Source: Candidatus Doudnabacteria bacterium (GTDB lineage Bacteria; Patescibacteriota; Doudnabacteria; UBA920; VMFF01). Taken from it: DNA of 64,000 nucleotides. Where the stretch lies: assembly GCA_963840645.1 (NCBI GenBank), contig CAWIZL010000004.1:203470-267469 (forward strand), in the 5' to 3' direction. The stretch's first letter is position 1; every line of letters begins with the position of its first letter. Made by a program: the position numbers and the translations under genes. This document shows, piece by piece, positions 3,921-36,700 of this stretch. The notes under the pieces were generated by a model, which had not been told where the DNA came from, made no database searches, and saw only the letters and a list, made by a program, of their open reading frames with translations.

Positions 3921-5402
3921 GTGCAAAACATCAATAAAAACTACTATTTAGCGGGCATAGCCGCACTTTTGCTCTTCACCCGCCTTGGGCTTGGCTCAAT
4001 CTTTACCAGTGCCTCTGACATTACGCCCGAGAGCGTGAGCGCGGGTGTCAACAATGAACGCTCAACCAGGAGCATCCCCACCCTAAACTACAACTCTGAC
4101 CTAGCAGAAGCTGCAGCCTACAAAGCGCAGGACATGATCACCAGAGACTACTTTGCCCACCAAGACCCTGACGGAAACTACATTTGGCCAACAGACGTTG
4201 CTGACGGCTACACGCCGTACACAATTCTCGGAGAAAACCTTGCCATAAACTTTCCTGACACAGACAGCCTCATGTCTGCATGGATGGACAGCCCAGAGCA
4301 CCGCACGAACATTCTGAACCCAGCGTTCCAAGACCAAGGTGCTGGGGTTGCGAGCGGCAACACGAGCCAGGGACAGTACTCGATTTCAATTGCAAATGAG
4401 TTTGGTGCGCTCGCCGTGGTGCAGAAAGCTGCGCCGCCTGCACCTAAGCCAACGCCGACGCCAGCCCAGAAAACTACGCCTCTGCCAACAGTCACGCCGA
4501 CGCCAAGCAGCGTACTGTCCCCTGCTCCGGCGACCTTGTCCCCTGCTCCGGGCGCCTGTCCCCTGCTCAGCCAACTCCAGCACCTGTTGTGTTGCCGTCA
4601 GTTGCACTGACAGGTGCAACGCAGACAGGCAACGGCAGCAACGTGACGCTTGCCGGCACAGCTGCACCAAACTCCAGTGTCACAATTTCAGACACTGCTT
4701 TCCCAAACGTGGGACGGGAAACGGTGACGGCCAACGCAACCGGCGACTTCACCAAAAATTACGCGTGGCCTCCAGAACGGCACGCACGTGTTTGTGGCAG
4801 TCCTCGCAGATGGCAGCGCAACGAGTGCACCGTACTCTGTGGATGTCTCGACGTCTGTGCCACCAGCTGTTCAGGCTGCCACGACAGCGGCGCTCAATGC
4901 GCCGAGCGTTGACGCGCAGTCAATGAAGCTTGCTGCCTACGCGCTGGGAACTGGCACTGCCCTCGACGTGAGCGTGAACGTTGGTGGCGACGTTGCGAGC
5001 GTGAGCGCCACGGTGAACGGACAGTCAGCCAGCCTGTCTGGTGAACCAACGTCCTACTCTGGCACGCTCCTGCTGCCAGAGCACACGGGCTTAGCAGGCC
5101 AGAGCATTGTGGTCACGGCAACAGCTCCAAACGGCAAGAGCAGCTCAGCGAGCACGCCGCTCGGAAGCATTCCAATCCAGCAAACGTCTAGCGCGGGCGG
5201 CCTTTCCAATGCAGACCTCTACGGTGTATTCAAAGGCATTGCCGTGGTGTTCGGCACTGTGTTCGCAATCTTCCTGATTGGCGATTTTATTCACTCTATA
5301 AAAAACCGAGGGATGACAGCAGAAGATATAGTAAAGGGTTCTCACATTGCCGTTCTGCTCATCGCAGTGGGCACAATGCTCTTGGTGAGCTGGTGGCACT
5401 AG
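3921..5402 (+). CDS. CAP/SCP (YkwD-like) domain surface protein with Pro/Thr linker, Ig-like region and C-terminal TM; two apparent frameshifts (~4550 and ~4770)
   Basis: CAP-domain signatures YFAHQDPDGN, GENLA and WMDSPEHRTNILNP. Three consecutive ORFs (3921..4610, 4589..4912, 4788..5402) continue each other's sequence. C-terminal TM helices. Confidence 0.65.
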
Positions 5403-18500: not shown

Positions 18501-18513
18501 AAATAAATTTGGT

Positions 18514-18593
18514 TGGTAGCCGAACAGGATATTTATTTGAAAGACTTGGTACGGGAAATATACACTATACGGGAAAAGGTGGCAATTCTGTGA
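18514..18593 (+). repeat. att-like repeat copy 1 (core TGGTAGC + conserved arm encoding VAEQDIYLKDLVREIYTIREKVAIL*); distal island border
   Basis: Core at 18514..18520 is identical to 30073..30079. The arm is near-identical to copies at 21521, 23241 and 23897. Similarity starts exactly at the core. Confidence 0.85.
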
Positions 18594-19865: not shown

Positions 19866-20685
19866 TTAGTTTGTGAATACTGTTTGCCGCTGGGCGTAGA
19901 CGCTCGGCGGCATTTTCAGTGCGCTGTGGATGCGCTCGTTGTTGTAGTACAGGATCTGCAGGTGGAGGGCGACGGCCAGCTCGGCGAGGCTGCCAAACCG
20001 GTCTGGGTCGCCCAGGTCAACCTTGAACTGCGAGTAGAACGACTCCTGGTAGCCGTTCTCCCACGGGCTCGCCTTGCGGCTCATGGATACCTGGATGCCG
20101 CACTGCCCAGCAAACCTGGTGTAGGCCTTTGCCCGGTACTCGTTGCCCTGGTCTGAGTGGGTCAGTGCCGGTGCGTCGCGCTTGCCCAGGGCGTCGATGA
20201 GGGCCGTGACGGTCAGCTGCGCCGTGTGCGCGTTCAGCACGCTCCAGCCGACGACCTCGCGGCTCCACAGTGACCATGACGGTCGCCAGGTACACGAACC
20301 TGCCGTGGAACTTGAGGTACGTGAAGTCGGACACCCAGGCGATGCCGGCTCGTGCGGGGAACGGGATGGCGAGCAGCAGGTTCTGGTACGGCGCAGCGTC
20401 CCTGCCTGAATCACGAGCCTTTACCGGCCTCTTCGCCCTCCTGCGGAACGGCTTGATGCCGAAGAGCTTCATGACCCGCAGCGCGGACTTCCGGTTGACC
20501 CCCAGCTCCCGGGCGATCCGCTTGTGCCCGTAGCTCGGGTGGGCGTGGAGCACCCCCTCGATTCTGACCTTGAGCTGCCAGTCGCGCTCGGGCATCTTGG
20601 GGCGGTAGTACAGCATGGAGCGGGACAGCCCACCGCTCTCCGCGAGTGATTTCTTCGTCGGGTTGTGAAGGTGCACGGCGCTCAC
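19866..20685 (-). CDS. IS3 OrfB (DDE transposase), with an extra frameshift near 20280
   Basis: AWVSDFTYL (D), THSDQGNEY (D) and NERIHSAL (E region). Two overlapping ORFs, 20017..20685 and 19866..20414. Confidence 0.8.
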
Positions 20686-20689
20686 CAGC

Positions 20690-20959
20690 TCAGCGATCCA
20701 GCTCTTTTTTTTCCAGCTGCGACAGCCTGACCGTCAGCCTGCCGATGATCTCGTGGAGCGCCGAGTTCTCCCGCCTGAGCCTGGACAGCTCCAAGATCGA
20801 CGGCGGGGCGGTCACGTTCGAGGCGACCCACTTGTAGATCGTCTTCGGGCTGAGGCCGTACTGCTTCGCCAGGTCTGGCACGCTCTCGCCGCTCTCCTTC
20901 AGCTTACGCAGCACCTCAGACTTAATCTCTGGACTGGCGGCTGGTGTTCCCTTGGGCAT
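20690..20959 (-). CDS. IS3 OrfA (HTH transposase N-terminal protein)
   Basis: LAKQYGLSPKTIYKWV helix-turn-helix plus a leucine-zipper-like C-terminus. Ends at the A8 slippery run. Confidence 0.85.
   Translation of the reverse strand: MPKGTPAASPEIKSEVLRKLKESGESVPDLAKQYGLSPKTIYKWVASNVTAPPSILELSRLRRENSALHEIIGRLTVRLSQLEKKELDR
20704..20713 (-). promoter_or_regulatory. programmed -1 ribosomal frameshift site of IS3 (A-run)
   Basis: The minus strand reads CTGGAAAAAAAAGAG at the orfA end. The -1 frame continues KKSWIAELVSAVHLHNPTKK into OrfB. Confidence 0.6.
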
Positions 20960-21410: not shown

Positions 21411-21520
21411 GATGAAATTATTTTTCAGCAAATCAGTAAGAACGGCCTGGACAACAGGCACGGCAACGGCATTGCCAAATTGCCGTACAGGGCTGTTGCC
21501 GAAAGACCTAGAAATGAAGT
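21411..21520 (-). pseudogene. 3' remnant of a C5 DNA cytosine methyltransferase (motif X only)
   Basis: The minus-strand frame reads NFISRSFGNSPVRQFGNAVAVPVVQAVLTDLLKNNFI*. QFGNAV.VP is C5-MTase motif X. Homology stops at the repeat core at 21521. Confidence 0.7.
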
Positions 21521-21606
21521 TGGTAGCCGAACAGGATATTTATTTGAAAGACTTGGTACGGGAAATATACAATATTAGGGCAAAGGTGGCAACTTTGGTC
21601 GTGTAA
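21521..21606 (+). repeat. att-like repeat copy 2 (core + arm encoding VAEQDIYLKDLVREIYNIRAKVATLVV*)
   Basis: Core TGGTAGC at 21521..21527. The arm aligns with copies 1, 3 and 4. The left flank is unrelated to the other copies. Confidence 0.85.
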
Positions 21607-23200: not shown

Positions 23201-23326
23201 TACCAGACAGCTGATCCTCACTGCGTGAGGAACACCTGCCTGGTAGCCGAACAGGATCTTTATTTGAAAGACTTGGTACAGGAAATATACAATATTTGGG
23301 CTAATGTAGCAATCTTATCTGGGTAA
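23201..23326 (+). repeat. att-like repeat copy 3 (hairpin left arm + core + arm encoding VAEQDLYLKDLVQEIYNIWANVAILSG*)
   Basis: Core at 23241..23247. About 40 nt left of the core is shared only with copy 4 and contains nested inverted repeats (CCTCAC-TGC-GTGAGG). Confidence 0.85.
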
Positions 23327-23856: not shown

Positions 23857-23976
23857 TACCAGGCAGCTGATCCTCACTGCGTGAGGAACACCTGCCTGGT
23901 AGCCGAACAGGATGTTTATTTGAAAGACTTGGTACGGGAAATATACAGTATTCGGGAAAAGGTGGCAACTTTTTGA
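23857..23976 (+). repeat. att-like repeat copy 4 (hairpin left arm + core + arm encoding VAEQDVYLKDLVREIYSIREKVATF*)
   Basis: Core at 23897..23903. The left arm is the same as in copy 3. Confidence 0.85.
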
Positions 23977-25082: not shown

Positions 25083-25713
25083 CAAAGGCAGTCTTGTTCG
25101 ACATGGATGGCCTCCTGGTGGACACAGAGAACGTAGATTTGAGTGTTGCGGTAAAAATCTGCCACGAGATGGGAATAGACCTGACTGACGAGGAGAAGGA
25201 GAGCCGCGTCGGCGTGGCTAGCAGAAAATTTTACAGCGGCTCTTTGAGAAGAGACGAGTTCATTTTGATCTAGAAGAAGTTTTGAGCAAGCACTTCAAGA
25301 TTTATGATGAGCTGCTAGAGGTTGGCCTGTGTCACTTTCCAGGAGCGAAATCTTTGCCAGCACTGTTAAAGTCACGAGGCTATAAATTAGGATTGGTATC
25401 AGGTAGTACCAGGAAGCAAGTTGAAACAATTCTATCACAGTTGGGTATAAAAAACTTCTTTGGTGTCATTATTGCAATAGAAGATGTTGCTCACGGAAAA
25501 CCTGATCCAGCTGCATACCTACTCGCTGCACAAAAATTGCAGGTCACCCCAGAAGAGTGTGTCGTTTTAGAAGATGCTCTCCCTGGCATCACAGCGGGCA
25601 AGAGAGCGGGTATGAAAGTAATTGGCGTTACCAATAATGGCGGCCAAGACCTATCACTAGCTGACTTGGTTGTTAACGGTTTGGACGAAGTTGAGATTGG
25701 AATGCTAACATAA
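25079..25713 (+). CDS. HAD-superfamily hydrolase (beta-phosphoglucomutase/phosphatase-like), apparent frameshift near 25245
   Basis: LFDMDGLLVDTE (motif I), SGSTRK, GKPDP and LEDALPGITAGKRAGM (motif IV). ORFs 25079..25273 + 25282..25713. Confidence 0.75.
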
Positions 25714-25717
25714 CTTT

Positions 25718-26476
25718 ATGAAAACGAAGATTTACGAAAGCTTGGCAAACCTATTTCCCCTGTGGAGAGAAACAATCCTCGGCAAGCAAGGGCACGAGAA
25801 GACAGAGGTAGATTTTGTCACCAGTGTATTGAACAAGTACCCATCTGAAATCAAGAGCGTGATTGACCTCGGCGGTGGGGTTGGACTGCACTCGCACCTG
25901 CTCAAAGAATCTGGCTACGATGTGACCTTGTTTGATAGGTCTGAAAAGGCACTGCAAATCGCAAAGGAAAATGATCCATCGCTCAAGGTGGTTCAAGGAA
26001 GCTTTGAGGACATAGGCGTTGCGGGTTCATTCGATGCGTCAATCTGCCTGTGGTCTACCCTGTCTTACGTCTACTCGGAAGACGGCAGGAAAAAATTCTA
26101 CGATTGGCAGAAAAATCATACGGGCAAGGTCATCATCCTAGACGAGGCAAACTTCTACCGATACTCTGAAAATTTCCACAAAGTTTATTTTGGCGAGGAC
26201 AGCAACCACATAATGAAAGTGGTTCGCGATTGGACGTTAACGAAAGATAACTTAAAAGAAACCAAGTTCACTTACGAAATCACCGATAAAAATACTGGCA
26301 GGACAGAGACTATCGAGGACGCAGAGAGCGAGCAATACGTGCCAGTGGAAAAGCTGGAAGAATACCTTGGGGCAGAATGGAAGCTACAGTACCTATGCGG
26401 AGATTACAATTTAAATTCTGCATTTGATAAGACAAACTCATCCAGAATTATCGCCGTATTCTTTAAGTACAGATAG
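25718..26476 (+). CDS. class I SAM-dependent methyltransferase
   Basis: Motif I VIDLGGGVGLHS followed by an acidic residue (LFDRS). Confidence 0.7.
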   Translation: MKTKIYESLANLFPLWRETILGKQGHEKTEVDFVTSVLNKYPSEIKSVIDLGGGVGLHSHLLKESGYDVTLFDRSEKALQIAKENDPSLKVVQGSFEDIGVAGSFDASICLWSTLSYVYSEDGRKKFYDWQKNHTGKVIILDEANFYRYSENFHKVYFGEDSNHIMKVVRDWTLTKDNLKETKFTYEITDKNTGRTETIEDAESEQYVPVEKLEEYLGAEWKLQYLCGDYNLNSAFDKTNSSRIIAVFFKYR

Positions 26477-26495
26477 TGCACCGCGCACACAGCCG

Positions 26496-26566
26496 TTGAC
26501 AAACTCACCCGCTGCGGCTTTTCATTAATGACCGCTTTTGACAAAACCACCCGCTGCGCGTATACT
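26496..26566 (+). promoter_or_regulatory. two 21-nt direct repeats (iteron/operator-like); the second forms a consensus promoter TTGACA-17-TATACT
   Basis: TTGACAAACTCACCCGCTGCG at 26496 and TTGACAAAACCACCCGCTGCG at 26538. TATACT at 26561..26566. Confidence 0.6.
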
Positions 26567-26573
26567 TCCATCA

Positions 26574-26856
26574 CAACTTAATAACTCAGCAAGAATCATC
26601 ACACGAGGGTAGGTGGTTTCCAGTCGCCACGGATGGGCGGCCTACCGATAACACATAAAGGAAACCTTCGCAGCCATTGCCAGGCTGCGCGATGTACGAA
26701 TGGGTGGGCGCCCAGTTATAAATAAGTCCCTTGCAGGCAAACCAAAACGAAAGGTTTTGAAATGCCTGCATTCAGCGTGCTGGTCTGTACCCAATACAGC
26801 CAGCTGACAAAGAAATACAGCCACGACACAACCCCAGTACCGCCTGGGGCTTTTTT
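26574..26856 (+). ncRNA. candidate structured non-coding RNA or single-strand origin (sso) of the adjacent RCR replicon
   Basis: No convincing ORF, but many complementary segments: GGTAGG/CCTACC, CGCC/GGCG, AAACCTTCG/CGAAAGGTTT, GCAGCC/GGCTGC, TGCAGGCA/TGCCTGCA and CTGG-CTGTA/TACAG-CCAG. Ends with CCCCAG-TACCGC-CTGGGG + T6. Confidence 0.4.
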
Positions 26857-27027
26857 ATCGCACCCTCACACTACTGGCTGCCCCCACGCCGATGGCTCGG
26901 CGAGAGGTGCGCCAGCACCGGGGGTGTCGCGGCGGGGATGGCGGCACGCCGCCAACCCGCCTGTGTTCTGCTCCCCGTTCCCGTCCCCTGTATCACTAGA
27001 TACTAGGTACACGTTAGGCGGAAACGT

Positions 27028-27897
27028 ATGAAGCTGACGAGCGTCAAAACCATCATCCTTGGCTCCAAGGTCAAGTTCCTGTACTTCGACACGCCCATCA
27101 GCTACGACTTCGAGAACATCGCGGCGCAGCAGAGAAAAAGCGGGAAAGAAATAATTACGATTGGAGACGACAGGGGCGACAGCATGGAGCTGTCTGCGCT
27201 CAAGGCCAGGTCACGGCTGAGGAACTTAGTCTGGTGCAACGCGTGGCAGTACAAGAAAGCAAACGGCAGCCTGTTTGTCCCTCAGTTCTCGACGTTCACC
27301 TTTGACCGCGACGTAGTGGACTTCGCCACGGGACACCCGCTGTACAACAACTTCATCAAGCGGCTCAACTATCAGTTCGATGAGAAGGTGCTCTGCATCA
27401 CGGTTCCTGAATTTCAGAAAGACACGGACTACCACGGCAAGGTCAAGGAGCTGGGCGGCAGGGTGCACTACCACGCCGTGTTCTTCAACCTGCCGTACCT
27501 GAAAAACCCTCATGCGTTTTTGAGCGACACGTGGGGCAACGGGTACGTGTTCAGTAAGTCAATCAACTCCGTGCAGCACCTCTCGCGCTACGTTACCAAG
27601 TACGTCCAGAAAGACCTAGAAAACAAGCACATCAAGTTCAAGAAGCGGTACTTAGTCTCGCGCGGCATCAAGCGGCCTGTCGAGATCTACGACCAGCAGT
27701 TCGCCGTTGACTTCGAGCGGTACATCTCCGCGCCAGGTATCCACACGACCAGAGAAAATGACTACGATTCCACTGACGGCAGGAAGATCCACGAGCTGGA
27801 GCTGACGTTCCCCGACGGATTCGATTTGTCGAGCCTCGTTGGTGAGACACCACAGGACACGCTGAGGCTCGCCCAGCAGATGGGAATCACCCCATGA
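27028..27897 (+). CDS. rolling-circle replication initiator (HUH endonuclease, phiX174 gpA / microvirus VP4-like)
   Basis: Motif 1 FSTFTF, HUH motif VHYHAVFF, and two-tyrosine motif YVTKYVQK. Confidence 0.8.
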   Translation: MKLTSVKTIILGSKVKFLYFDTPISYDFENIAAQQRKSGKEIITIGDDRGDSMELSALKARSRLRNLVWCNAWQYKKANGSLFVPQFSTFTFDRDVVDFATGHPLYNNFIKRLNYQFDEKVLCITVPEFQKDTDYHGKVKELGGRVHYHAVFFNLPYLKNPHAFLSDTWGNGYVFSKSINSVQHLSRYVTKYVQKDLENKHIKFKKRYLVSRGIKRPVEIYDQQFAVDFERYISAPGIHTTRENDYDSTDGRKIHELELTFPDGFDLSSLVGETPQDTLRLAQQMGITP

Positions 27898-28013
27898 CGG
27901 ACGAGGAGACACAAAACTTCCGCGACCTTCAGCAGGCTCTCGTCGAGCTCGCCTTTGCGTTTTGGCGCGAGGAAAAATTACAGCAGATGACGGAAAACAA
28001 AAAGGATGTATAA
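27894..28013 (+). CDS. small helical protein (39 aa) translationally coupled to rep
   Basis: ATGA overlap with the rep stop. Sequence MTDEETQNFRDLQQALVELAFAFWREEKLQQMTENKKDV. Below the ORF-track length cut-off. Confidence 0.4.
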   Translation: MTDEETQNFRDLQQALVELAFAFWREEKLQQMTENKKDV

Positions 28014-28038
28014 TACAACCATTCATTAAATATCTACC

Positions 28039-28584
28039 ATGTCCACCTTTACCATTCCATTTCCAGAGTACGACATCGCCAACATCCTCCAGAAAGAATT
28101 TGCCAAGAAGGATAGCTTTTCAGTTGCTATACCACTGAGCCGCCAGCAGAAATTCTACGACCTGCTTCTGGTGAATGGGCAGACCAAAAAATCTGTGACT
28201 ATCCAAGTAAAAAGTTCGAGGACATGGTTGGGATTAGGTAAACAAGAATACCAGCATTACTCTTGGCTCAACCACTTTGACATCAAGGACAACTACAGCG
28301 ATTTTTATTTCGTCTACATGACATATCCGTTGCTAGATAAAAATTTCCACCCTGGAGCAAAGTGGGACAGAAAAATACTCGTCTTCAATCAAAAGGAGAT
28401 GCTGGAACTTCTCGGTAACGTAAAAACAAAAGCAGGTAAACAGGGACGCTTCTTCGGCTTCGGATTCAACAATAGAGACAACGAGATATACAGCACCCTC
28501 GGCTTTTCGCATCTAGGTTTACAAAATTTTTCAAAAAATCTCCTCAAGAACAAGCTCGCCGAGATAAAAAAGAAGCTGGTTTAA
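28039..28584 (+). CDS. PD-(D/E)xK-like nuclease-fold protein (tentative)
   Basis: YDLLLV ... VTIQVKSS resembles a D...(E/Q)xK restriction-endonuclease-like core. AT-richer than the flanks. TGTATAAT promoter at 28006..28013. Confidence 0.4.
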   Translation: MSTFTIPFPEYDIANILQKEFAKKDSFSVAIPLSRQQKFYDLLLVNGQTKKSVTIQVKSSRTWLGLGKQEYQHYSWLNHFDIKDNYSDFYFVYMTYPLLDKNFHPGAKWDRKILVFNQKEMLELLGNVKTKAGKQGRFFGFGFNNRDNEIYSTLGFSHLGLQNFSKNLLKNKLAEIKKKLV

Positions 28585-28592
28585 AAACTGCT

Positions 28593-30113
28593 ATGGAACA
28601 ACCACACGGCGTCATCTACTATCGCGTCTCGACCACAGAGCAGGCGGAGCACGGCTTCAGCCTGGAGAACCAGCGGGAGACGTGCCTGCGGTACGCCGAG
28701 CACCACGGCATCAAAATCGTCAAGCTGTTCTCCGACGACGGCGTGTCGGCCAAGACCGCCGACAGGGACGGGCTGCAGGCCATGCTGTCGTTCTGTGGCG
28801 ACAGGTCAAATAGCGTCAGCGTCGCCATCATCTACAAGGTGGACAGGCTGTCGCGCAACGTGCACGACTACGGAGGCATCGTCATGCTGCTCAGGAAGCA
28901 CGGCGTGCGGCTCGTCTCGGCCACGGAAGCCATTGATGAGACCCCGTTCGGCGTGGCCGTGGGCAACATCATGATAACGTTCTCCGAGTTTGACAACGCC
29001 GTGCGCAAGGAGCGCACCAAGGCGGGCATGGTGCAGTGCCTCAACTCTGGCAGGTTTCCGCACAGGGTAAAGATTGGCTACCTGAACGTGGTTGACCCGC
29101 ATGGAAACAAAAAAATAATTCTTGACCCAGAGCGTGCAGCTACGATTAAAAATATTCTCCAAGAGTTCTCGAAGGGCATCTACTTCCAAGAGGAGCTGCG
29201 GCAAAGGTTCAATGCCCAAGGCTTTCTCACGCGCGAGGGAAATCCCCTGTCCTTCCAGATGATGAACAAGATTCTGACGAGCAAGTTCTACTGCGGCACA
29301 ATGACCGTGAGTGGCATTGAGTACCAGGGCAGCCACGAGCCGCTGATTTCTGAAACAATCTTTCACAAGAACCAACAGCTACTGAGAAAGAAATCTACTG
29401 CGCCATCGCTGAGCACCACGTCTGAGTTTGCGCTCAGGAACTACGTCATCTGCGGCGACTGCTCGCGGCCGCTGACGGCTGGATTTTCAATTGGGCAGAA
29501 CGGCGGCAGGTATCCGTACTACCGCTGCTACAACCCAAAGTGCCCGTCACGAAAATCATACGCAAAGGGAAAGCTGGAGGCAGCATTCATAAAGCTGCTC
29601 CGAAGCGTTACCCCGACAGAGGAAAACATTGCCTCACTCAAAGAGGTCATCGTGAACCACTGGAACAAGCAGTACAAGAACCTGAACAAGAAAAATGAAC
29701 GGTTAGAGAAGCAGCTCGTTGAGCTTCAAGCTGAAAAGGCTCAGATCTTCAACATGGGCAAGAAGCAGCTCATCTCTGATGAAGACTTCAAGGAAGCGTT
29801 CGATACCGTAAAACAAAAAATAGCCGATTGCCAGCTTGCTCTCGCAGGAACGACGATTGAAGACTTTAACGTGAACGAGGCAGTAGACTTCGTGTTCGCC
29901 TTCGTGCGGCGCATTCCAGAGTACTGGGAGAAAGCTGACTACGCCAAGCGTGTAAAATTGCAGGGTTTGATTTTCGCCAAAAATCCCATCTTCCAAAAAA
30001 CAGAGTTTGCAACCCCAGTTCTGACCAATGTTTTCAAGGCAAAAGAGTTCATTTGCAATCAAAATTCAACGATGGTAGCGCTACGGGGAATCGAACCCCG
30101 ATTTAGTGGATGA
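28593..30113 (+). CDS. large serine recombinase (integrase); 3' end runs into the complement of tRNA-Glu
   Basis: Resolvase catalytic domain YYRVSTTEQ ... DRLSRN, a recombinase domain, zinc ribbon CGDC...C..PKC, and a coiled-coil region. The final residues VALRGIEPRFSG are encoded by tRNA antisense sequence. Confidence 0.9.
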   Translation: MEQPHGVIYYRVSTTEQAEHGFSLENQRETCLRYAEHHGIKIVKLFSDDGVSAKTADRDGLQAMLSFCGDRSNSVSVAIIYKVDRLSRNVHDYGGIVMLLRKHGVRLVSATEAIDETPFGVAVGNIMITFSEFDNAVRKERTKAGMVQCLNSGRFPHRVKIGYLNVVDPHGNKKIILDPERAATIKNILQEFSKGIYFQEELRQRFNAQGFLTREGNPLSFQMMNKILTSKFYCGTMTVSGIEYQGSHEPLISETIFHKNQQLLRKKSTAPSLSTTSEFALRNYVICGDCSRPLTAGFSIGQNGGRYPYYRCYNPKCPSRKSYAKGKLEAAFIKLLRSVTPTEENIASLKEVIVNHWNKQYKNLNKKNERLEKQLVELQAEKAQIFNMGKKQLISDEDFKEAFDTVKQKIADCQLALAGTTIEDFNVNEAVDFVFAFVRRIPEYWEKADYAKRVKLQGLIFAKNPIFQKTEFATPVLTNVFKAKEFICNQNSTMVALRGIEPRFSG

Positions 30114-30147
30114 GAACCACTTGTCCTAACCGTTAGACGATAGCGCC
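30073..30147 (-). tRNA. tRNA-Glu (anticodon CUC)
   Basis: Manual cloverleaf: acceptor GGCGCTA/TAGCGCT (G1-U72), D stem GTCT/GGAC, anticodon stem AGTGG/CCACT with loop TTCTCAT, T arm CGGGG-TTCGATT-CCCCG, encoded ACCA. Confidence 0.85.
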
Positions 30148-35445: not shown

Positions 35446-36312
35446 ATGAAATACACAATCAGAGACTTCAAAAAGGACTTCCCAGACGATGAGGCTTGCC
35501 TAGCCTACATCTTCCAGAACCGCTACGGCAGCTCCTACGCCTGCCCGAAGTGCGCCAAGGTATCTTGGCACAAGGTATCTGGTAGAAAGGTGTGGGCGTG
35601 CGCGTGGTGCGGGCAGCAGGTACACCCTCTGGCTAGCACAATCTTCCATAAGTCAGACACGCCGCTCTCGCTGTGGTTCTTCGCCATCTACAAGTTCGCC
35701 AACTCTAGGAACGGCGTATCGGCTAAGGAGCTTGAGCGTGATTTAGGCGTTACCTACAAGACGGCGTGGCGAATGGCAAAGCAGATACGCTCCCTATTCG
35801 ACACCGACGGCTACAGGCTCGGTGGCAACGGAACGATTGTAGAGGTTGATGAAGCCTTTATGTCTAAAATTCAAGACCAAGCGCACAGGAGAGGCACGCC
35901 AAAGGCAATTGGGCTGGTGGAGCGCGGCGGAGCTGCAAAGGCTGTCGCCGTAGACAACGTGCGCAAGTTGAACACGATACCCCTAATCAACCACGAAGTT
36001 GAAAAGGGCAGCCAAATCTTTACAGACAGGGCTGCGCTCTACAGGGCAAAGAATTTAGAGGGCTACGGGCACGAGGCGGTGAACCACTCGGCTGGCGAGT
36101 ACTCTTTTGGCGGTGTGCATATAAACAACGTCGAAGCCTTGTTCAGCCAGATCAAGCGTTCAATTGACGGGACGTACCACCGTATCTCGCGGAAGTACCT
36201 ACAGGCTTACCTAGACGAGTTCGCGTGGAAGCTGACCCACGGGCGGAACGGGCAGGCTCTGTTCCCTTTGCTGCTACAGGAGCTTTGCCAGCCGCGAGCT
36301 TTAGAAGTTTAA
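35446..36312 (+). CDS. IS1595-family (ISXO2-like) DDE transposase with N-terminal zinc ribbon
   Basis: CPKC...CAWCG zinc ribbon. GVSAKELERDLGVTYKTAWRMAKQIR (HTH). IVEVDEAF and IFTDRAALY DDE-region motifs. Confidence 0.8.
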   Translation: MKYTIRDFKKDFPDDEACLAYIFQNRYGSSYACPKCAKVSWHKVSGRKVWACAWCGQQVHPLASTIFHKSDTPLSLWFFAIYKFANSRNGVSAKELERDLGVTYKTAWRMAKQIRSLFDTDGYRLGGNGTIVEVDEAFMSKIQDQAHRRGTPKAIGLVERGGAAKAVAVDNVRKLNTIPLINHEVEKGSQIFTDRAALYRAKNLEGYGHEAVNHSAGEYSFGGVHINNVEALFSQIKRSIDGTYHRISRKYLQAYLDEFAWKLTHGRNGQALFPLLLQELCQPRALEV

Positions 36313-36612: not shown

Positions 36613-36700
36613 GTGTTCGTAGCAAATACTGGTTAATGCACTCGTTTGGAGAACGAGAGGCTGACCGCCAATGTGGGTTCGATTCCCATCGAACACCCCA
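36613..36700 (+). tRNA. tRNA-Ser (anticodon GGA), class II with long variable arm
   Basis: Acceptor GTGTTCG/CGAACAC, anticodon stem CTCGT/ACGAG with loop TTGGAGA, variable arm GGCTGACCGCC, T arm GTGGG-TTCGATT-CCCAT, encoded CCA. Confidence 0.75.

Follow-up and report, generated by a model that had tools for sequence, protein, structure and literature searches.

A predicted structured RNA gene and an integrated element with a phiX174-type initiator probably meet at a tRNA-Glu gene in a Candidatus Doudnabacteria genome

The 64,000-nucleotide (nt) stretch of Candidatus Doudnabacteria DNA analysed here, referred to throughout as the window, carries to the left of a tRNA-Glu gene a succession of features whose relationship to each other is not obvious from their order. 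From left to right these are a pair of 21-nt direct repeats, a promoter followed by a highly structured segment of about 280 nt that ends in a terminator, a short GC-rich stretch, a gene (rep) for a rolling-circle replication (RCR) initiator, two small open reading frames (ORFs), the gene of a large serine recombinase and, on the opposite strand, the tRNA-Glu gene itself (Table 1). For the DNA upstream of rep, an initial annotation made from the letters alone had offered two readings, either a double-strand origin with Rep-binding iterons and a nick site followed by a single-strand origin, or a promoter-to-terminator non-coding RNA (ncRNA) carried by the element to which rep belongs. Comparison with related loci indicates instead that this interval is made of two unrelated features joined at an integration junction. 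To the left would lie a predicted RNA gene of the host chromosome (26538-26856) and to the right an integrated element of about 3.2 kb (~26859-30067) that comprises an origin, rep, a 39-codon ORF (orf39), a 181-codon ORF (orf181) and a serine integrase. The explanation considered probable for the whole is that the host RNA gene stands beside an integrated RCR/serine-integrase element of the phiX174 gpA type, with the origin of that element at 26987-27021.

The assignment of DNA to host or element derives from loci in which the element is absent. A collection of Rep homologues yielded 77 proteins and 183 genomic matches, from which 80 loci were kept. Among the comparison loci, which are designated by L-numbers, L001-L006 are the closest Rep relatives (55-61% Rep identity), and L089 and L088 are the two closest relatives by MurF, both of them element-free versions of the locus. 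The L089 contig encodes neither Rep nor integrase. Its tRNA-Glu(CUC), 98.8% identical to the window copy, is separated by 76 nt from a segment that matches window positions 26535-26783 in reverse complement at 90.7% identity; from the -35 box to +211 the identity is 92.3%, and likewise in columns 1-208 of the RNA, as compared with 78% in the coding flanks. The homology has abrupt ends at 26535 and 26783. Beyond them, in the DNA that precedes the -35 box and in the final 76 nt on the tRNA side, similarity to L089 is not significant (43.6% of the columns in the alignment, which has z = 1.7), and it is against this saturated background that the 92.3% identity stands. Because the promoter and structured segment are present beside tRNA-Glu in the element-free L089, they are host DNA, and searches of 86 Rep loci with nhmmer, blastn and a covariance model found no copy of the segment. 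Of the two initial readings the ncRNA is therefore the better fit, with promoter, core and terminator all kept in L089, whereas its placement on the element does not hold.

These comparisons bear most directly on the possibility that positions 26496-26856 belong to the Rep element, with the repeats as iterons, a nick site in the string CAACTTAATAAC and the following 280 nt as a single-strand origin. Such an arrangement would account for the proximity of the segment to rep, the presence of direct repeats, the strong folding of both strands and a partial likeness to the phiX174 origin string, and yet it is highly improbable for host DNA that is 92% identical in an element-free genome and is found in 0/86 Rep loci. 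The repeats themselves are as first described, with 42 nt from the start of one (26496-26516) to the start of the next (26538-26558); 19 of their 21 positions are identical, and two matches occur in the window where shuffles predict 0.01. The downstream copy does form the promoter-like TTGACA-17-TATACT that had been pointed out, with 11 of 12 consensus positions matched, and L089 retains both hexamers and their spacing with a different spacer sequence. Iterons, in contrast, are located on the replicon itself, close to the origin, and are shared by its relatives. The label does not suit these repeats because there are just two copies, in host DNA, and because the 21-nt unit is absent from 104 other loci even with up to 4 mismatches allowed. 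In L089, homology begins only at 26535, so that the upstream copy is missing and the single copy that remains is diverged in its spacer part (TTGACAAAACCACACCTCAGG). The repeat is a recent, local and window-specific duplication of the -35 box and spacer of the RNA promoter, and its position coincides exactly with the breakpoint that separates this DNA from the variable region upstream.

The likeness of CAACTTAATAAC to the phiX174 origin fares no better. The string is present, but the match is gapped and omits the 6 nt GATATT that hold the G↓A nick (the arrow marks cleavage here and below), leaving the site without the nick core ACTTG↓ATA, and in L089, the sole homologue, the corresponding string is CAATTCAATAAC, with 2 of 12 positions changed. 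Given the missing nick-bearing nucleotides and the changes in L089, the resemblance is no better than incidental, at a site that is host DNA and occurs in none of the 86 Rep loci. Likewise, neither strand of 26573-26856 contains the CS-6 hexamer (TAGCGT/A) of ssoA-type single-strand origins.

A far better conserved candidate for the origin adjoins rep itself. To judge from its sequence, Rep is a two-tyrosine HUH protein of the phiX174 gpA type. It matches the family PF23343 (REP_ORF2-G2P) with E = 8e-12, a family whose threshold phiX174 gpA itself passes, and its alignment with gpA (hhalign probability 84%, E = 7e-6) spans the FxTxT, HxH and YxxKY motifs. In 24 homologues, almost all Rep homologues being from Patescibacteria (Candidate Phyla Radiation, CPR) assemblies, the motifs FxTxTF, HYH and YxxKYxxK are invariant. 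No solved structure was matched when the Rep alignment was used as a search profile, and PADLOC returned nothing for Rep.

The sole upstream DNA that is conserved with rep among related elements is CCTGTATCACTWGATAYTAGGKWCACRTWAGGCG, at 26987-27021. Relatives at 55-61% Rep identity keep this block with hardly a change, and in the four closest elements it is invariant. It lies about 420 bases downstream of CAACTTAATAAC, inside the GC-rich stretch of some 170 nt before the rep start codon that the initial annotation had recorded and left uninterpreted (66.7% GC for 26857-27027 as against 52.5% for the whole window). Following a hairpin, the predicted nick motif ACTAG↓ATACTAGGTACAC at 26995-27012 fits the layout ACTTGAT-N7-ACAC of phiX174, in whose record the origin is annotated at 4306 within CAACTTG↓ATATTAATAACAC; a gpA-type Rep thus adjoins a conserved core of the phiX174 kind. 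The broader distribution of this core was assessed with the pattern CT[TC]GAT-N7-A[AC]A[CT], for which 84 loci were examined between positions -300 and +60 relative to the estimated start of rep, alongside 360-nt control windows. It occurs in 33 of the 84 loci as compared with 0.6% of the controls, and most copies are found 25-75 nt upstream of the estimated start. Strong folding is also seen in the 74 nt that precede the motif (mean z = -3.1, with 60% below -2; n = 30), through stems that are unrelated in sequence, which indicates a conserved hairpin. In phiX174, cleavage occurs between G4305 and A4306 and is carried out by Tyr343/Tyr347 (bioRxiv 10.64898/2026.07.25.740675). By analogy, the predicted nick of Rep falls between G26999 and A27000.

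Several known systems resemble the element in part. With phiX174 (Microviridae) it shares the FxTxT, HxH and YxxKY motifs of the initiator and the ACTTGAT-N7-ACAC layout of the origin. It differs in that the phiX174 origin is located inside gene A and the one described here is intergenic, 8-40 nt upstream of rep, as well as in the GC-rich hairpin that precedes the origin, the ACTAGAT core, the lack of capsid or other phage genes and integration by a serine recombinase. The gene II protein of the Ff phages (f1/M13) and the plectrovirus ORF2 protein belong to the same Pfam family as Rep, PF23343 being named after them. In Ff the hairpins of the (-)-strand origin lie directly upstream of the (+)-strand nick. 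The Ff origin, too, is non-coding and has adjoining hairpins, although the origin of the element shows no sequence similarity to it and the element has no morphogenesis genes. Plasmids of the pT181, pMV158 and pC194 families, including those with ssoA-type origins, are the source of the idea of a structured single-strand origin in the initial annotation. They similarly encode an HUH Rep whose nick site is found in the vicinity of the Rep gene, but their Rep is of another family, and the 280-nt segment of the window lies outside the replicon, lacks CS-6 and is conserved in an element-free genome. Also comparable are the integrative mobilizable elements reviewed in PMC5704250, which are likewise small, integrated and equipped with a serine recombinase and an RCR-type initiator or relaxase. 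The ones treated there are from Firmicutes and carry Rep_trans or Rep_2 relaxases, whereas the present family is found in Patescibacteria, targets tRNA 3' ends and uses a gpA-type Rep.

The boundaries of the element agree with this picture. On the left, homology with the related L003 element begins at CACC, position 26862, and in both loci the T-run of a host terminator comes directly before it; in L089 terminator and tRNA are joined without any intervening element. As no displaced tRNA 3' half was found at the left junction, the crossover would have taken place at the tRNA 3' (CCA) end and not in the anticodon or T arm; by sequence, then, the element is placed between the terminator of the RNA gene and the CCA end of tRNA-Glu. 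An inverted repeat at 25674-25686 / 30123-30135, considered as a pair of att half-sites, was dismissed as noise, the boundaries being fixed by the empty site. A domain set typical of large serine recombinases at one end, together with host DNA that is contiguous in the empty site, characterizes the insertion as a large-serine-recombinase element at a tRNA gene. The order rep, small ORF, serine integrase, tRNA is the same in L001-L006, where the tRNA is Glu-UUC or Lys, and the integrase is 67% identical to that of L003. The 181-aa ORF is probably acquired cargo; neither Pfam nor PADLOC has a match for it, and its match to phrog_5018 is weak. No description of this family of Rep/serine-integrase elements was found in the literature.

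Table 1. Positions of the features at the RNA gene, the integrated element and the tRNA-Glu gene (window coordinates; att, attachment site; aa, amino acids)
Feature	Position	Strand	Remarks
21-nt repeat, upstream copy (TTGACAAACTCACCCGCTGCG)	26496..26516	+	no usable -10
Sigma-70-type promoter TTGACA-17-TATACT of the predicted RNA gene	26538..26566	+	contains downstream repeat copy 26538-26558
Predicted ~284-nt non-coding transcript	26573..26856	+	start predicted ~7 nt after -10 box; end = T-run
CAACTTAATAAC of the initial annotation	26574..26585	+	about +1 to +12 of predicted transcript
Most conserved RNA core	26606..26783	+	hairpins GUCGCC/GGCGGC, GCAGCC/GGCUGC, 39-nt hairpin 26732-26770
Variable 3' hairpin (GCUGGUCUGUA / UACAGCCAGC)	26779..26804	+	different hairpin at same place in L089
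Intrinsic terminator CCCCAG-TACCGC-CUGGGG + CU6	26832..26856	+	GC hairpin 26832-26849, then T6
Left junction, attL	26857..26861	.	bracketed to about 5 nt; host terminator ends 26856
GC-rich non-coding left end, proposed origin region	26862..27027	+	67% GC; alignable only with L001-L006
GC-rich hairpin GGCGG-CACG-CCGCC inside CGGGG/CCCG	26928..26965	+	upstream of nick motif
Predicted origin block CCTGTATCACTAGATACTAGGTACACGTTAGGCGG	26987..27021	+	predicted nick G26999/A27000 (ACTAG↓ATAC)
Rep, predicted HUH rolling-circle initiator, phiX174 gpA type, 289 aa	27028..27897	+	motifs FSTFTF, HYHAVFF, YVTKYVQK
Conserved 39-aa ORF after rep	27894..28013	+	56-62% identical to 36-aa ORFs of L003, L005; in all close relatives
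181-aa ORF	28039..28584	+	~40% GC; not in related elements; promoter-like site 27987-28014
Large serine recombinase (integrase), 506 aa	28593..30113	+	Resolvase + Recombinase + Zn_ribbon_recom; phrog_95 integrase
Right junction, attR	30064..30072	.	CCA end of tRNA-Glu; L089/L088 identity resumes rightwards at 30073
Intact tRNA-Glu(CUC), integration target	30073..30147	-	98.8% identical to L089 copy

Two further properties of the element family may be recorded. The integrase ORF does not reach a stop codon before the element ends, and its last ~41 nt run antisense into the tRNA (30070-30113; C-terminus ...VALRGIEPRFSG), just as the L003 integrase reads into tRNA-Glu(UUC) at L003:7154-7194. When the element ends are joined in silico, this tail is replaced by 35-45 residues from the GC-rich origin region, so that the C-terminus of the integrase would change with the integration state. 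In addition, the related elements of L001 and L005 (L001:4780-4830; L005:1765-1815) contain an ORF of about 290 aa (31% identical between the two) with a terminator. A covarying palindrome (CCGAAATTTCGG / CAGAAATTTCTG) comes next, before the origin region is reached; this ORF/palindrome module is missing from the window element.

The structured segment to the left of the junction is, as a host-encoded RNA gene, convergent with tRNA-Glu. Folding energies were compared with those of 200 dinucleotide shuffles. On the plus strand, 26573-26858 reaches -93.5 kcal/mol (z = -3.2), a value that none of the 200 shuffles attains; the minus strand stands out less (z = -2.6), and the L089 orthologue, at z = -4.1, folds better than all of its 200 shuffles. 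The complementary pairs listed in the initial annotation, GGTAGG/CCTACC, AAACCTTCG/CGAAAGGTTT and TGCAGGCA/TGCCTGCA, were recovered, and so was its closing GC hairpin with T6. Identity with L089 is highest in the core (26606-26783), in which 96% of columns agree and one run of 57 nt is identical. Both orthologues then finish in a hairpin followed by a terminator, and in both cases these are unrelated in sequence. In L089 the terminator consists of a 16-bp A-run/T-run hairpin that lies 10 nt away from the tRNA-Glu CCA end, an arrangement that would make it bidirectional, and in the uninterrupted locus the terminator of the RNA gene is common to tRNA-Glu.

Evidence from substitutions is limited to the comparison of two sequences. 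Pairing survives one-sided changes in 7 pairs, of which 6 belong to the core and are all kept through G-U; 4 double changes in predicted pairs all fall in the unalignable 3' part, and no predicted pair is broken. As the structure was chosen on the same two sequences, the kept pairing in the core is only suggestive. The absence of a convincing ORF in these ~270 nt, as initially reported, is borne out by L089, in which no ORF is conserved. Between the two genomes, the ORFs of 30 and 35 aa are put out of frame by indels of 1 and 2 nt, and the only ORF with a conserved start, that at 26762, diverges completely from L089 after six codons. The small ORFs 26633-26725, 26700-26807 and 26762-27031 were accordingly ruled out as coding, and no conserved frame of the kind that would have spoken against an RNA came to light in the homologue. 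With promoter and terminator retained in both orthologues and no reading frame conserved, the segment has the features of a stand-alone ncRNA gene.

No Rfam family accommodates this RNA. The covariance-model scan that had been suggested as a check was run with Rfam over the whole window and assigned the segment to no family at gathering threshold. At E <= 10, positions 26300-27200 gave just chance-level matches to mir-449 and Chloroflexi-1 (19.9 bits against thresholds of 60-80), and no family of Rfam 15, including riboswitches and OLE, ROOL, GOLLD and HEARO, came near its gathering threshold. RNase P RNA, signal recognition particle (SRP) RNA, 6S RNA and transfer-messenger RNA (tmRNA) were rejected by eye, by Rfam and by ARAGORN, which found no tmRNA. 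With orphan bacterial small RNAs the predicted gene has in common a sigma-70 promoter leading to a Rho-independent terminator, the lack of an ORF, a conserved core and a variable terminator hairpin. At ~284 nt, however, the predicted RNA is longer and more structured than most of these, occurs in two genomes only and has no Rfam family.

One detail of the core has a different character. The palindrome TGGGCGCCCA at 26705-26714 is changed to TGGACGTCCA in L089 by a double substitution that keeps the dyad. It cannot be a hairpin pair of the RNA because a loop of 2 nt would remain, and may instead point to a duplex between molecules or to a dyad bound by a protein. This change, and an AAAGG resembling a Shine-Dalgarno sequence 7 nt before the ATG at 26762, are the observations that would fit a block functioning not as a stand-alone RNA and instead as a DNA-level element (a site of recombination or of protein binding, for instance) or as the gene of a leader peptide or micro-protein. 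That the block is bracketed by a conserved consensus promoter and terminator, that L089 has no downstream gene and just the convergent tRNA, and that the 26762 ORF diverges after 6 codons and the others are frameshifted make either version quite improbable.

Another confounding issue for the interpretation of the RNA gene is its narrow distribution. At L088:4813-5640, about 830 nt of unrelated DNA with a 118-aa ORF follow the same tRNA-Glu 3' end and replace the RNA gene. Synteny walks from MurF at two Doudnabacteria loci (MurF homologues at about 50% identity carry the Doudnabacteria label) reached tRNA-Glu and found no RNA. The 3' end of tRNA-Glu is a recombination hot spot. Wider searches were empty as well: blastn with 26480-27030 found no match in Escherichia coli genomes, phages or plasmids; exact-block scans of viral contigs (three) gave nothing; and a metagenome scan with a loop-anchored pattern produced 11 random hits and 0 homologues, with L089 itself not recovered. 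A six-frame pseudo-protein search of 5.8 billion proteins, aimed at ORFs mis-called over RNA genes, and an nhmmer search of the Rep loci (~1 Mb of CPR DNA) with the segment were likewise negative. The covariance model R1, trained on the window and L089 and searched against 0.97 Mb of CPR DNA, returned just these two training sequences, and no description of the RNA was found in the literature. From the empty searches and its absence in L088 and the Doudnabacteria loci it follows that the RNA is lineage-specific, and the same absences show that it is not a universal housekeeping RNA.

This distribution is also what would be expected if the 250-nt block had come with an older mobile element lodged at the tRNA-Glu hot spot, as its leftover or as cargo such as a regulatory RNA, with the identity to L089 resulting from recent horizontal transfer and not from purifying selection in the host. 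The block lies at the edge of a patchy-GC variable region, its homology ends abruptly at both sides, it is missing from the same locus in L088 and in distant Doudnabacteria, and no other homologue was found in the searched sets. Such an origin is nevertheless unlikely, for no mobility gene is linked to the block in L089, the substitutions in stems all keep pairing, and promoter and terminator are intact by sequence in both genomes; moreover, the block would still be an RNA gene, with its history altered and not its nature.

Several findings weigh against the preferred explanation of a host RNA gene beside an integrated gpA-type element. The RNA is missing beside tRNA-Glu in the closest relative, L088, and in the distant Doudnabacteria loci, and the high identity with L089 could reflect recent transfer and not constraint. 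There is a single homologue of the RNA, and the pair counts of RNAalifold are biased towards retained pairs. The position of the att crossover is fixed no more closely than to about 5 nt. Further complicating the assignment of the origin, the window reads ACTAGAT (26995-27001) where every motif-bearing relative has ACT[T/C]GAT. As the deviant A lies 2 nt 5' of the predicted nick, the origin of the window may be weakened or crippled by this deviation, and the integrated copy may thus be impaired.

In the mechanism proposed for this locus, the serine integrase would recombine two sites, an attP that takes in the 3' end of its own gene together with the GC-rich left end of the element, and an attB composed of the tRNA-Glu 3' end and its terminator, thereby inserting the element between the terminator of the RNA gene and the CCA end of tRNA-Glu. 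After excision, Rep would nick ACTAG↓ATAC at 26999/27000 and the element would replicate by rolling circle, with the upstream GC hairpin serving either in Rep loading or, as a single-strand origin, in complementary-strand priming. The RNA gene would be a bystander whose terminator became the left flank of the element.

Further observations concern the wider neighbourhood. Upstream of the flagged interval are low-GC genes for an aminotransferase, a HAD protein and a methyltransferase, and to the right of tRNA-Glu lies the division and cell wall (dcw) cluster with MurF, a penicillin-binding protein (PBP) and MraW. A family of repeats of ~75 nt (window 18512-18585, 21517-21601, 23241-23312 and 23897-23972; L089:8023-8107) is spread through the patchy-GC variable region of 18.5-24 kb, the window copies being 86-93% identical to that of L089. 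Each begins with TGGTAGCCGAACAGGAT, apparently the 3' end of a tRNA, CCA included, in reverse-complement orientation, and continues with a promoter-like TTGAAA...TATACA; these repeats may mark successive integrations. An island of about 1 kb at 19900-20900, with 64-67% GC in surroundings of ~42%, holds a 222-aa ORF with a weak match to HTH_21 and is possibly an insertion-sequence remnant. A transposase gene of the IS1595 family adjoins tRNA-Ser(GGA) (35446-36312 and 36613-36700).

As to function, the guess preferred here is that the RNA acts in trans and is specific to the lineage of its host, a Doudnabacteria-related bacterium of the Patescibacteria (CPR). A more ambitious proposal joins two statements: that the block 26535-26783 represents a new class of structured ncRNA with a specific cellular role in one Doudnabacteria-related CPR lineage, and not a generic small RNA or mobile leftover; and that the Rep/serine-integrase elements are undescribed, capsid-less single-stranded DNA replicons of the phiX174 type that integrate at tRNA 3' ends across Patescibacteria. 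Taken jointly, this is a tentative suggestion and, on present evidence, doubtful.

For the organism and the element family, the locus has several implications. None of the three features first noted, the repeats, the phiX174-like motif and the structured segment, serves the element as a replication signal, which illustrates that an integration junction can mimic a composite origin. The orphan RNA gene, known from two copies, is strongly conserved at the nucleotide level, and to our knowledge the non-coding RNAs of CPR bacteria are almost unexplored. Finally, a likely origin has been located for small Rep/serine-integrase elements that are widespread in CPR bacteria and for which no description was found in the literature, and its connection by sequence to the gpA system of phiX174 supplies a predicted nick site that is directly testable.

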